Positions 33,220-39,403 of a stretch of 56,731 nt of DNA are shown piece after piece; the stretch's first letter is position 1; every line of letters starts with the position of its first letter. The position numbers and the translations under genes were made by a program. Location of the stretch: assembly GCA_035509435.1 (NCBI GenBank), contig DATJLR010000001.1, positions 1-56,731 on the forward strand, in the 5' to 3' direction. The notes beneath the pieces are model-generated. The model was not told where the DNA came from. It made no database searches and saw nothing but the letters and a program-made list of their open reading frames with translations. This DNA is from Minisyncoccota bacterium (lineage in GTDB: Bacteria; Patescibacteriota; Minisyncoccia; UBA6257; 2-01-FULL-56-20).

Positions 33220-34371
33220 ATGGCAATGAGTCCGAACGAGCCGAAGGAAACCGTTCGATCGAAGGAAGTTCGCTATTTAAAGAAAATAGCGCTTTTTTGT
33301 ATTCCGTTCGCCGTATTGCTTGGGCTGCCCATCCTCGCTCTCTACGGCTCCGGGGAATATACTCCGTGGAACACTCTGGCTGCGCGGATGCAAAGCGCTC
33401 AACCGGTCCTCGTGGGCCTCGCCTTCAGCAATCCCGTGTATTATCTCGATCTCCAAAATACTCTCGCAAAAAAGCCGCAAGTGATCGTCCTCGGATCATC
33501 CCGCGCGGGGCAATTCAGTTCCCATTTTTTTAACGCCAGCACCAGCGCATATGTTGATGGTGGCATGATGCAAGAAATGAGCCACTTCCAGGAATTCCTC
33601 AATGACATCCCAACAAGCAGCAGCCCGCAGATAATGATCATGGTCCTTGATCAGAAATTTTTTGATCCAAATTATAATGTGTTCCTATATGGACCCGATA
33701 ATATACAGCCCCTTCTTGAACAGTCATCTTCTCCTATTTTAGGAAACTTGTGGGCCCAGCTCTTCCAGGTCTATGATTACTACTTTACCGGAAAGATCAA
33801 TCCTTCGTCATTCTTCAACCCCTCAACCTCTATCATCGGCCTCAATGCAAGCGTCCACGATGCAGGGTTCGAGAACGACGGGAGCTATCTGTATGGCAAC
33901 GCTCCGGCATCGGACGGCGCGATCTATGGCATTGAAAATAATACGAAGGGATTCGAATATAGCGCTACGATCTCACAGACAGATCTTCAGGAACTGAATG
34001 CTTTCCTGGCCGAATGCCAGGCGCGGCATATTTATGTAGTGGGGGTCATCCCCCCTCTTTCGCCCTTGGTTTATAATACCGTGCTTTCGATGGGAGATAA
34101 ATATGGATATTTGAACTACCTCACGCCGGATGCAGGAGCGATCTTCTCAAAATATGGATTTGGTTTTTATAATTTTACGGATCCCCAGTCGTTGGGCATC
34201 ACGACCGGGAACGGAGATATGTGGGACAATATCCACATGACCCAGCAGGGCTGGCTAAAAGCGTTCATTACGATGGCAAGCACAAATCAGACGCTTAAAG
34301 AGCATTCCAACCTTGCCGAGCTCCAGCAGGAACTGAATATGATGGAAAGCAGTTCGACCTCAGCGCAATAA
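33220..34371 (+). CDS. Membrane-anchored SGNH-like protein (DltD/AlgJ/AlgX/PatB-type acyl relay)
   Basis: N-terminal TM, block-I LGSSR Ser, C-terminal WDNIH (DxxH); converges on the MBOAT gene. Confidence 0.68.
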   Translation: MAMSPNEPKETVRSKEVRYLKKIALFCIPFAVLLGLPILALYGSGEYTPWNTLAARMQSAQPVLVGLAFSNPVYYLDLQNTLAKKPQVIVLGSSRAGQFSSHFFNASTSAYVDGGMMQEMSHFQEFLNDIPTSSSPQIMIMVLDQKFFDPNYNVFLYGPDNIQPLLEQSSSPILGNLWAQLFQVYDYYFTGKINPSSFFNPSTSIIGLNASVHDAGFENDGSYLYGNAPASDGAIYGIENNTKGFEYSATISQTDLQELNAFLAECQARHIYVVGVIPPLSPLVYNTVLSMGDKYGYLNYLTPDAGAIFSKYGFGFYNFTDPQSLGITTGNGDMWDNIHMTQQGWLKAFITMASTNQTLKEHSNLAELQQELNMMESSSTSAQ

Positions 34372-34384
34372 AGTTCGTGCCCTG

Positions 34385-35863
34385 TTAGAACTGGAAATAG
34401 ATGAAGGTCTGCTGGTCGAAATATCCAAAAAAGAGGATCCATGCCACGATGAGGTAGTATGCTCCCCAACGGAACCACATTGGGTGTGCCGCGATCCATG
34501 CAGTCACCTGCTTCTCTCTTTCAAGATATTCACCGAAAAGCATCACGAGGCATGAAAGCGGGAGAGCGGCAAGGCGGTATTTAGTGAGTCCTGCATAAAT
34601 CTCGGTATGGGCGAGGTCGGTCCAAAAATGGACCCGGAAGGCATTGCTCCAACCCGTCGGAAGGTGCTCCAGGAAATAGATCGCATTGCTTAAGGAGGTG
34701 GATCTGAAAAATACAAATCCGATGCACACGAGGCCAAAGGTTATCAACGTCTGAAAAAGCGCAAGAAATCCCGGATACCGCGATATCCGGGAGGAAGCGA
34801 TGAGGCGATCCCGGTATTTTTTCGTCCACAGGCCGAACACGCTATAGAAGCCGAACACCGCGCCGAAGCATATGAATGTCCATCCCGCACCGTGCCAGAG
34901 GCCGATGACGAGAAATGTGACGAAAAGCGCCGCATATAATCCGGCCCTTGACCACGAGGCCCATTTCAGCGCAAGGGGGAAATAAAAATAATCGCGGAAC
35001 CAGCTCGTAAGGGAGATATGCCATCGGCGCCAGAAGTCAGAAATAGATCTTGCAAAGTAAGGCACATCAAAATTATTGACGAGATCTATCCCGAAAACCT
35101 TTGCCGAGCCCCGGGCAATATCGGAATAACCGGAGAAGTCGGCGTAGAGCTGTATCGCGAAGGCAACTGCCGCAACTGCCAATGCGACGCCGGTTTCCCC
35201 ATGCAGGTTTCCATATATCTGGTCAACTATGACCCCGATAGAATCGGCGACGACTACCTTTTTGAAGAATCCCCAGATCATGATCCGCAACCCCTGAGAA
35301 GCAAATCCTTCGTTGAATTCATGTTCGGCATGTAATTGAGGAAGCAGCTGTTGCGGCCGTTCAATTGGGCCGGCGACCAGCTGCGGGAAGAACATCACGT
35401 ATAAGGCATATATGCCGATATGGCGCTCGGCAGGATAACGCTTGTAGTAAACTTCCAGCACATATGCAAGGCTTTGGAACGTATGGAAAGAAAGCCCCAG
35501 GGGCAACGCGATCGCGAGAAAGCCGATCGGATAGTTCCAGTGCAGGAAGCTCGCGACAGAAGCCACATTCGCATTGAAGAAATTGAAATATTTAAAGAAG
35601 AAAAGAGTGCCGACATTCGCGATGATGCTGATGGTGAGAAAAAGCTTCCGCTTCCTTCCCTCTGCTTTTTCGATCAATATGCCCATAAAAAAATCTATTA
35701 CGATAAGATAGAGCAATATCAAAATATAAGCGGGAATAAACGCCATATAGAAATAACAGCTCGCAACAAGAAGAAGTATCCATCGGAATCGGTGCGGCAA
35801 AAGATAATACAAAATCACCACCACGGGGAAGAACACAAGGAAGCTGAATGAGTTGAACAACAT
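34385..35863 (-). CDS. MBOAT O-acyltransferase (AlgI/DltB/PatA family)
   Basis: MLFNSFSFL, LPLGLSFHTFQ, FFPQLVAGPIER, FWRRWHISL, GLWHG catalytic His. Confidence 0.95.
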   Translation of the reverse strand: MLFNSFSFLVFFPVVVILYYLLPHRFRWILLLVASCYFYMAFIPAYILILLYLIVIDFFMGILIEKAEGRKRKLFLTISIIANVGTLFFFKYFNFFNANVASVASFLHWNYPIGFLAIALPLGLSFHTFQSLAYVLEVYYKRYPAERHIGIYALYVMFFPQLVAGPIERPQQLLPQLHAEHEFNEGFASQGLRIMIWGFFKKVVVADSIGVIVDQIYGNLHGETGVALAVAAVAFAIQLYADFSGYSDIARGSAKVFGIDLVNNFDVPYFARSISDFWRRWHISLTSWFRDYFYFPLALKWASWSRAGLYAALFVTFLVIGLWHGAGWTFICFGAVFGFYSVFGLWTKKYRDRLIASSRISRYPGFLALFQTLITFGLVCIGFVFFRSTSLSNAIYFLEHLPTGWSNAFRVHFWTDLAHTEIYAGLTKYRLAALPLSCLVMLFGEYLEREKQVTAWIAAHPMWFRWGAYYLIVAWILFFGYFDQQTFIYFQF

Positions 35864-39046: not shown

Positions 39047-39055
39047 TGTATTTAT

Positions 39056-39403
39056 TTAATTTTCTAAAACCAGTGCGCATCCCGCAGCATATCGAGCGGA
39101 ATGGGAGATGCTCGCAATCGCCCGATATCGTCGCCCCATCTCGGGCACCAAAAATCGGACTATCGGCCTTACTCCGTCTTTCACTATTTCAAACTGATGG
39201 GGCTTCAGAAGGGTCGGGAATGCCTTGATCGTTGCCTCCTTCACTGCAAAACGGGAAGCGATAAACTGGACCTTGTCCACGCGCCCCTCAAACACTTCTA
39301 ATTCACCGGGTGTTAAAAAATATTCCGCAAATCTACGCAGGAACCGGATGTTCTCGACCTGATCGAGCTCCACTATGTCCATGCCTATTCCGAGAGGGGT
39401 CAT
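39056..39403 (-). CDS. acpS: Holo-ACP synthase (4'-phosphopantetheinyl transferase)
   Basis: GIGMDIVE, SRFAVKEATIKA, SISHS..YAAG. Confidence 0.9.
   Translation of the reverse strand: MTPLGIGMDIVELDQVENIRFLRRFAEYFLTPGELEVFEGRVDKVQFIASRFAVKEATIKAFPTLLKPHQFEIVKDGVRPIVRFLVPEMGRRYRAIASISHSARYAAGCALVLEN

Follow-up and report, generated by a model that had tools for sequence, protein, structure and literature searches.

We found that seven genes in a 56,731-nucleotide stretch of DNA from a Minisyncoccota bacterium (assembly GCA_035509435.1, contig DATJLR010000001.1; the whole stretch is called the window below) probably form a self-contained module for attaching a small C3 acyl group, as an ester, to an exported surface glycan, by means of an MBOAT/SGNH relay fed by an acyl carrier protein (ACP). 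Lactyl is the best guess for the acyl group; that it is specifically lactyl is close to an even call, leaning if anything slightly against. According to the list of open reading frames (ORFs), the cassette spans positions 33220-39403 (6.2 kb) and consists of six minus-strand genes, encoding AcpS, FkbH, ACP, MaoC, a short-chain dehydrogenase/reductase (SDR) and MBOAT, and a convergent seventh gene (Table 1). In this order the six genes are separated by gaps of 9, 11, -8 (an overlap), 5 and 4 nt, and 13 nt lie between the stop codon of the MBOAT gene and that of the seventh gene. We scanned the encoded proteins against Pfam and NCBIfam models and searched separately for catalytic signatures by a motif scan, which found the catalytic motifs intact in all seven. 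An earlier reading of the same DNA, made from its letters without database searches (the sequence-only reading), had described six co-oriented, tightly packed genes and a convergent one, with intact catalytic motifs; the ORF list places them at the same coordinates, and every signature was recovered.

AcpS matches PF01648 (7e-11) and narrowly exceeds the cut-off of TIGR00516 (61.0 bits against 59.8); it would turn the apo-ACP of the cassette into holo-ACP. FkbH scores far above the cut-offs of both TIGR01686 (1.4e-90, 303.7 bits against 146.65) and the HAD-IIIC model TIGR01681 (2e-20, 73.9 bits against 35.75), and is built of FkbH_N, HAD-IIIC and a C-terminal Cys domain. Its DLDNT (residue 223), SKNN, DDDP and SCR (C492) motifs are invariant across 31 homologs, its N-terminal two thirds match PDB entry 3slr (BF1531; 3.7e-51), and its closest named homologs all come from Patescibacteria. 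Characterised FkbH enzymes (OzmB, FkbH and those of tetronate systems) convert 1,3-bisphosphoglycerate (1,3-BPG) into glyceryl on an ACP, and the literature on OzmB assigns the glyceryl intermediate to the conserved Cys. The cassette protein belongs to this family and, by homology, would likewise use 1,3-BPG and load glyceryl. The ACP itself scores 31.4 bits against PF00550 (cut-off 20.8) and carries the DSL serine at residue 33; AcpP models match it weakly and DltC models do not match it. MaoC (PF01575, 3.5e-21, 75.5 bits against 27) contains the exact full hydratase-2 motif, FAEVSGDRNPLHVDDSYA. The SDR matches PF13561 (1.7e-34, 119.9 bits) and has the GGCGTVG and YTVAK (Y159xxxK163) motifs, while FabG-like models score it far under their cut-offs.

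The MBOAT protein matches PF03062 with an E-value of 4.4e-18 (66.1 bits against 27). It is homologous over its full length to the DltB equivalog TIGR04091, though with 149.3 bits it stays under the cut-off of 375, and its best solved relative is DltB (6bug, 3.1e-25). The histidines of its WRRWH and WHG motifs, H282 and H324, align with His289 and His336 of DltB. Its last six residues, FIYFQF (...TFIYFQF-stop), are an exact FxYxxF acyl-shuttle motif, which also ends 13 of the 14 MBOAT ORFs listed from related loci. The match above the Pfam cut-off, the two histidines and the C-terminal FxYxxF together place the protein in the bacterial polymer-acylating branch of the family. In such systems MBOAT passes the acyl group to the invariant Tyr of the FxYxxF shuttle, from which the Ser of an SGNH protein transfers it to the polymer; the acyl-Tyr intermediate has been demonstrated in Dlt and PatAB (PMC12148441; the Dlt mechanism is also treated in PMC11035591). 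The shuttle resides on the microprotein DltX in Dlt, and is fused to the MBOAT C-terminus in systems that use acyl-coenzyme A (acyl-CoA), such as PatA, non-Dlt MBOAT/SGNH pathways having no carrier protein (PMC12148441). A different arrangement was seen in one related locus (L008, positions 6139-9629), where a shorter MBOAT (397 aa) without the FxYxxF tail lies upstream of AcpS-FkbH-ACP-MaoC-SDR. It is preceded by two transmembrane proteins, one of them GDSL/AlgX-like, and may represent another relay design.

The seventh protein (383 aa) has no Pfam or NCBIfam match above cut-off. Against DltD (PF04914) it scores only 15.5 bits (E 0.012; cut-off 22.7), and the sub-threshold Pfam matches among members of its family fall in the SGNH clan only (DltD, Lipase_GDSL_2, DUF1574); none of 28 members matches ALGX (PF16822) at E <= 1. 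When a profile of the 28 homologs was searched against PDB chain sequences, a hexosaminidase appeared (E 0.055), which we regard as a chance match; nothing real was found this way. An AlphaFold2 model of the protein (pLDDT 93.2, pTM 0.89) was more informative. Foldseek against the PDB placed DltD on top (6pfx, E 2.7e-4; 6o93, 7dxm, 3bma), followed by sialate and xylan SGNH esterases, with the DltD/SGNH matches at probability 0.99-1.0. The whole-chain TM-score to DltD is low (about 0.35-0.39; the small SGNH esterases give about 0.6 of target), and we therefore name the protein DltD-like, not DltD.

The alignment of 28 homologs revealed the invariant residues L-G92-S93-S94-R95, D144, D220-G221-S222, P278 and D336xxH339. 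Invariance of GSS and D336xxH339 corresponds to the block I/block V pattern of SGNH enzymes, so that the block I Ser, the block V DxxH and the modelled fold all assign the protein to the SGNH superfamily. A single transmembrane helix (residues 19-45) follows a Lys/Arg-rich N-terminus, which predicts an N-in/C-out topology with the catalytic domain outside the cell. The sequence-only reading had called this a membrane-anchored SGNH protein; the fold, the GSS and DxxH blocks and the membrane anchor bear that out, with the reservation that no curated SGNH family recognises the protein. In an exhaustive profile search of 50%-identity representatives the family comprised 5045 members at E <= 1e-3 and 1678 at E <= 1e-30. 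In all eight contigs that we looked up (from one proteobacterial metagenome-assembled genome (MAG), two other NCBI assemblies and several metagenome or read-archive contigs) the DltD-like gene adjoins an MBOAT gene, indicating that this is a family of MBOAT partners. We also noted an invariant Gly-Glu pair at the outer end of the transmembrane helix (residues 45-46 of the family), where the MBOAT shuttle tail might dock.

Taken in order, the proteins suggest the following pathway. AcpS would make holo-ACP, onto which FkbH, if it behaves as its family does, would load D-glyceryl after dephosphorylating 1,3-BPG on its own Cys492. MaoC would then take the C2 proton and the C3 hydroxyl from glyceryl-ACP to give enol-pyruvoyl/pyruvoyl-ACP, and the SDR would reduce the 2-keto group to yield lactyl-ACP, a step with precedent on carrier domains of polyketide synthases (PKSs). 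By analogy with the Dlt and PatA mechanisms, MBOAT would take the acyl group from the phosphopantetheine arm of ACP at its cytoplasmic tunnel and move it to Tyr489 of its own FIYFQF tail at the outer face. The DltD-like protein would accept it on Ser93 or Ser94 of the GSS block, helped by the Asp336/His339 dyad, and join it as an ester to a hydroxyl group of the glycan that the enclosing Wzx/Wzy-type locus produces. This acceptor may be a polysaccharide of the wall or S-layer, or a glycan attached to protein. A dehydratase-ketoreductase (DH-KR) pair was shown to turn glyceryl-S-ACP into lactyl-S-ACP in the FR901464 and lankacidin pathways (He et al. 2014, cited in PMC4765723). The lactylation pathway of the sequence-only reading is thus supported in its architecture and logic, and its chemistry has a precedent on ACP. 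Lactyl is not universal, since three of ten close cassettes have no adjacent SDR, and may not be right for the window.

The cassette lies inside a ~31-kb Wzx/Wzy-type heptose surface-glycan locus. Besides the genes in Table 1, this locus encodes two family 2 glycosyltransferases (GT2), one GT1-type glycosyltransferase, a GT11 and three epimerase/dehydratases; the pathway to GDP-heptose is a prediction from the families of the enzymes. Apart from MBOAT, we found no ketosynthase, adenylation, GNAT, hexapeptide, AAC(3)-type or AT3 gene among the ORFs scanned between positions 12711 and 46170. MBOAT is therefore the sole candidate exit for the acyl-ACP, and this, together with the linkage of the genes, is why we consider ACP, not acyl-CoA, the likely acyl source of MBOAT. 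These results agree with the sequence-only reading, which had placed the cassette among glycosyltransferases (several GT2, GT1, GT4 and GT11 enzymes, epimerases, Wzx, Bac_transf and Wzy_C are indeed present) and had seen no ketosynthase, adenylation enzyme or PKS, none of which occurs in the scanned interval.

To place the cassette among its relatives, we collected 80 loci from species-representative genomes (GTDB) with a profile of 31 FkbH homologs. Their ORFs were labelled by phmmer and hmmsearch with the seven window proteins and the DltD-like profile, and gene order was then counted by strict adjacency. This under-counts L009, L010 and L014, where genes are inserted, the FkbH ORF is too long or FkbH is split; these three were read by hand. 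In the eight closest loci, where FkbH is 48-53% identical to that of the window, AcpS-FkbH-(ACP)-MaoC is kept without exception, with AcpS directly upstream of FkbH. MBOAT is present in seven of them, an SDR in five (L007, L008, L010, L012, L014) and a DltD-like gene also in five; L007 and L008 have GDSL/AlgX-like SGNH proteins in its place. A further locus, L005, repeats the FkbH-ACP-MaoC-SDR-MBOAT order exactly, and its DltD-like gene is likewise convergent. Over the whole set, by strict count, ACP directly follows FkbH in 58 of the 80 loci and MaoC comes next after FkbH-ACP in 23; an SDR directly follows MaoC in 8, to which L005 and L014 are to be added. The MaoC-linked loci belong to Patescibacteria including Saccharibacteria, Thaumarchaeota, DPANN archaea (Woesearchaeota, Nanoarchaeota), Methanosarcinales and others.

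In distant loci, acyltransferases of other kinds, identified by Pfam, stand beside FkbH-ACP-MaoC(-SDR): AAC(3)-like in L031 and L033, hexapeptide in L019, and in L054 the FkbH unit is followed by a GNAT next to a DegT aminotransferase. The thaumarchaeal locus L034 encodes a transmembrane protein and then MBOAT-FkbH-ACP-MaoC, the same coupling in an independent lineage. Recurrence beside varied acyltransferases in glycan loci indicates that FkbH-ACP-MaoC(-SDR) behaves as a portable module for acyl-ACP supply. A neighbourhood survey of this kind was the test by which the sequence-only reading could fail, and it came out in favour of that reading: in several phyla the FkbH-ACP genes of glycan loci have MaoC, and less often an SDR, as neighbours, and neither a ketosynthase nor long-chain machinery lies close by. 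A role in long-chain acyl or polyketide metabolism was rejected, given that the scanned locus has no ketosynthase, acyltransferase-domain or adenylation gene and that the surveyed loci are without condensing enzymes. We tentatively extend the proposal further, to a view that we hold at somewhat less than even confidence: FkbH-ACP-MaoC(-SDR) would be a widespread, unrecognised portable module that draws a C3 acyl group from 1,3-BPG instead of acyl-CoA and with which Patescibacteria, DPANN archaea and Thaumarchaeota O- or N-acylate their surface glycans. In the window it would feed the first carrier-protein-dependent MBOAT outside Dlt, which, by its fused Tyr shuttle and a transferase from a new DltD-like family, would make an O-lactylated glycan.

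Several observations made in the survey concern loci other than the window. Quartets of FkbH-ACP-MaoC-AcpS without an SDR occur in Nitrosopumilales and other Thaumarchaeota (L016, L019, L020, L023, L034); lying in glycan loci, they adjoin hexapeptide transferase and deacetylase-like genes. Transmembrane proteins of 315 aa (L011, 13825-14772) and 313 aa (L034, 7526-8467) adjoin FkbH-linked MBOATs; neither matches Pfam or the DltD-like profile, and they may be further unrecognised families of MBOAT partners. L007 and L008, whose FkbH is the most similar to that of the window, come from MAGs labelled 'uncultured Gammaproteobacteria' and carry a cassette of the Patescibacteria type, which could reflect mis-binning or lateral transfer. 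In a Taylorbacteria MAG (L014, 551-1996) FkbH is split into ORFs of 305 and 168 aa and the ACP is not cleanly called; a frameshift, pseudogenisation or faulty assembly could be the cause. An unannotated 588-aa protein of L002 was considered as an FkbH and rejected, because its sequence has no HAD motifs; it looks like a capsule-type transferase. The phmmer E-values were not informative for telling FkbH-linked from FkbH-free MBOATs (1e-71 for L034, 7e-95 for L004).

A number of findings weigh against the proposed pathway. A fused FxYxxF tail has been described for MBOATs that use acyl-CoA (PMC12148441), and distant pairs of MBOAT and DltD-like genes (L002, L088, L089, P0011) have no FkbH or ACP nearby. 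Such pairs and the fused shuttle imply that this MBOAT lineage can presumably work without ACP, on acyl-CoA. The modest whole-chain likeness of the seventh protein to DltD counts on the same side, as does the relation of MaoC and the SDR to the DH and KR domains of the PKS precedent, which is one of analogy, not homology. The three close cassettes without an adjacent SDR are L009, L011 and L013; lactyl is accordingly not universal, and the final acyl group may differ, being pyruvoyl or glyceryl in some systems. Finally, many Patescibacteria are limited in CoA metabolism, and AcpS requires CoA.

These points bear on three other explanations. The first two of them we consider unlikely. The relay may be as proposed, with its cargo another C3 acid derived from FkbH, such as glyceryl or pyruvoyl (2-oxopropanoyl). 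In the three loci just named FkbH-ACP-MaoC-MBOAT stands without an adjacent SDR, 15 of the 23 MaoC-linked loci have no SDR right after MaoC, and the SDR of the window scores so far below the FabG-like cut-offs that its family does not define its substrate. Glycerate esters do exist on polysaccharides, native gellan being an example. However, the MaoC and SDR genes of the window are intact and adjoin or overlap the genes next to them, and both are kept in L005, L007, L008, L010, L012 and L014; alpha-keto thioesters are very reactive, making pyruvoyl an improbable end product; and in the characterised precedent, so far as PMC4765723 relays it, DH and KR acting on glyceryl-ACP yield lactyl-ACP. 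Slightly harder to sustain is the idea that two unrelated functions lie side by side, MBOAT and the DltD-like protein being an ordinary acetyl-CoA-dependent O-acetyltransferase of the PatA/PatB or AlgI/AlgJ kind, with the product of FkbH-ACP-MaoC-SDR going to another acceptor or enzyme. The fused tail and the FkbH-free pairs fit this idea, and cytoplasmic N-acyltransferases accompany the FkbH unit in other lineages. It leaves the acyl-ACP without a candidate exit, though, because no alternative acyltransferase was found among the scanned ORFs of the glycan locus; and it sits poorly with the finding that all but one of the eight closest loci have an MBOAT, mostly straight after MaoC or the SDR, and that MBOAT adjoins FkbH in a thaumarchaeon, and with the operon-like spacing of the genes, 4-5 nt apart.

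It is very unlikely that the acceptor is something other than a polysaccharide, namely peptidoglycan, a lipid-linked intermediate or the glycan of a glycoprotein (pilin or S-layer). The Wzy_C family, to which one protein of the locus belongs, includes the O-oligosaccharyltransferases PglL/PilO, which would suit a protein-linked glycan. An MBOAT/SGNH pair that acts on peptidoglycan is also known, PatA/PatB (PMC12148441). Against this, the cassette in every related locus lies among glycosyltransferase and nucleotide-sugar genes and varies together with them, and homologs of the partner protein are found in capsule or O-antigen-like loci. A carrier-protein-fed relay onto an exported glycan remains the reading that we prefer.

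The base composition of the cassette sets it apart from its surroundings, as the sequence-only reading had remarked in calling it AT-richer than the flanking genes: its GC content is 0.48-0.50 against 0.53-0.60 in the flanks, and the GC content at third codon positions is 0.51-0.60 over positions 31165-39403 against 0.68-0.85. This low-GC block, which also covers two glycosyltransferase genes, fits a laterally acquired variable block, and the seven-gene module was probably acquired horizontally. A related patescibacterial locus (L087, 1-10303) shares the flank of the window: RNase Y, Wzy_C, a small protein, GT11 and an epimerase. In it, a methyltransferase gene precedes a DltD-like/MBOAT pair, and upstream there is a gene for a reverse transcriptase (RVT_1); the glycan region has the appearance of a variable island with conserved flanks on either side.

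Two promoter-like sites are listed in Table 1; over the region, the number of such sites is not above that in shuffled sequences. The plus-strand site lies 33 nt before the start codon of the DltD-like gene. The minus-strand site precedes an epimerase gene (39404-40351) whose stop codon abuts the AcpS start with zero gap, and is a possible start of the minus-strand operon.

As for the host, GroEL of the window (6403-8067) shares 93% identity with proteins under the names Minisyncoccia or Paceibacterota, which places the host in Patescibacteria. The description of the lineage in the sequence-only reading as one generally lacking fatty-acid synthesis is reasonable, and a patescibacterial host would account for the presence of a phosphopantetheinyl transferase in the cassette itself. 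Outside the glycan locus, a plus-strand ORF (47354-48889) that starts with MAKKTAVLIVLDGWGIG resembles, by eye, a cofactor-independent phosphoglycerate mutase; if it is one, the window encodes lower glycolysis, from which 1,3-BPG is proposed to come, close to the cassette.

Table 1. Predicted features of the cassette and of the surrounding glycan locus (window positions).
Feature	Positions	Strand	Basis
AcpS-type 4'-phosphopantetheinyl transferase, 115 aa	39056-39403	-	PF01648, TIGR00516
FkbH-like glyceryl transferase/phosphatase, 579 aa	37307-39046	-	TIGR01686, TIGR01681
Acyl carrier protein, 78 aa	37059-37295	-	PF00550
MaoC-type (R)-hydratase/dehydratase hot-dog protein, 143 aa	36635-37066	-	PF01575
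Stand-alone SDR ketoreductase, 253 aa	35868-36629	-	PF13561
MBOAT transmembrane acyltransferase, 492 aa	34385-35863	-	PF03062
Membrane-anchored DltD-like SGNH-fold protein, 383 aa	33220-34371	+	fold and motifs
Promoter-like site, TTGACG-16 nt-TATAAT with TG extension, 11/12	33160-33187	+	consensus match only
Promoter-like site, TTGAAA-16 nt-TATCAT, 10/12	40358-40385	-	consensus match only
Bac_transf priming transferase, grouped with GT4 and GT2 as genes of priming and export	16705-18033		
Wzx	19076-21064		
SemiSWEET-type protein, 91 aa, between Wzx and HAD phosphatase	21130-21405	+	MtN3_slv 9.5e-11, PQ-loop
GDP-D-glycero-D-manno-heptose-like set: NTP transferase, SIS/GmhA-like, HAD phosphatase, transaldolase, GHMP kinase	22854-29264	-	families
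Second SDR, grouped with the heptose set and a GFO/IDH/MocA oxidoreductase	23602-24468		
Wzy_C protein	42976-44628		

MBOAT/SGNH relays are the general bacterial route for acylating polymers outside the membrane, and to our knowledge the only established types of donor are acetyl-CoA and D-alanyl-DltC. If the pathway proposed here is correct, it would add a third donor route, in which a dedicated ACP carries a C3 hydroxy-acyl group derived straight from a glycolytic intermediate, and so widen the chemistry of these relays; it would also mean that a fused acyl shuttle can operate with a donor bound to a carrier protein. Thousands of genes from uncultivated lineages (Patescibacteria, DPANN archaea, ammonia-oxidising archaea) that so far bear only the annotation 'HAD-IIIC family phosphatase' or 'hypothetical' would gain a concrete function open to testing, and the retention of ACP and AcpS in organisms without fatty-acid synthesis would be explained. 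The DltD-like partner family, with about 1,700 clusters at 50% identity (E <= 1e-30) and no curated model, merits a family definition, and a self-contained cassette of 6.2 kb makes heterologous reconstitution realistic. Full-text literature searches found no account of glycan modification by FkbH together with MBOAT, none of FkbH from Patescibacteria, and none that links FkbH to polysaccharides or to glycosyltransferases at the cell surface, within a coverage that leaves out most subscription journals; the search for FkbH with MBOAT returned only papers on the nonribosomal peptide synthetases of aeruginosin/suomilide.

Among known systems, the donor half of the cassette resembles the lactyl starter units of trans-AT PKSs (FR901464, lankacidin), with the same predicted sequence of 1,3-BPG, glyceryl-S-ACP, dehydration, 2-keto reduction and lactyl-S-ACP, so far as those pathways are described in the source cited above. 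Here, in contrast, the activities reside on discrete proteins, with a MaoC (PF01575) instead of a PS-DH domain, a free SDR and no ketosynthase, and the acyl group is proposed to reach a glycan instead of a polyketide chain; being made of discrete proteins and having no ketosynthase, the cassette is not a PKS module. The bryostatin PKS, too, has an FkbH-DH-KR-ACP lactyl starter module. Tetronate and methoxymalonyl-ACP pathways likewise use a stand-alone FkbH with a dedicated ACP for glyceryl-ACP, as is known for the family that TIGR01686 describes, whereas their FabH-like condensing enzymes or FkbK/FkbI/FkbG are absent here.

The relay half resembles Dlt in that a small acyl group on a phosphopantetheinylated carrier would pass to an MBOAT with the same two histidines and on to a membrane-anchored, extracellular SGNH protein of DltD-like fold, with an FxYxxF acyl-shuttle motif in both. 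Unlike Dlt, neither the cassette nor the locus has a DltA adenylation enzyme, and FkbH, MaoC and SDR would make the donor instead; the carrier is ACP-like, not DltC-like; the shuttle is fused to MBOAT, and with intergenic gaps of at most 13 nt no small ORF of the DltX type fits in the cassette; MBOAT scores under the DltB cut-off (149 bits against 375), and its partner, whose best fold matches are DltD structures, scores under that of DltD; and no teichoic-acid genes are present. PatA/PatB, AlgI/AlgJ/AlgF/AlgX and WssH/WssI share with the cassette the C-terminally fused FxYxxF of MBOAT, a single-pass SGNH-type partner and an exported polymer. Those systems, however, use acetyl-CoA without a carrier protein (PMC12148441), whereas here AcpS-FkbH-ACP-MaoC-SDR lies in the operon; the partner, without an ALGX match, is nearer in fold to DltD; and the cassette contains no extra small periplasmic gene, though no search was aimed at AlgF. 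The label 'Dlt/Alg-like' of the sequence-only reading therefore holds for the way the system would work, which is that of Dlt, and not for membership, as the cassette belongs to neither group (no DltA, no DltX, no ALGX match). Its proposed carrier-protein donor recalls Dlt and its fused shuttle recalls PatA and AlgI, and it looks like a hybrid of the two designs: the MBOAT/SGNH relay for polymer acylation is known, and the donor module and the partner family would be new if ACP is indeed the donor.

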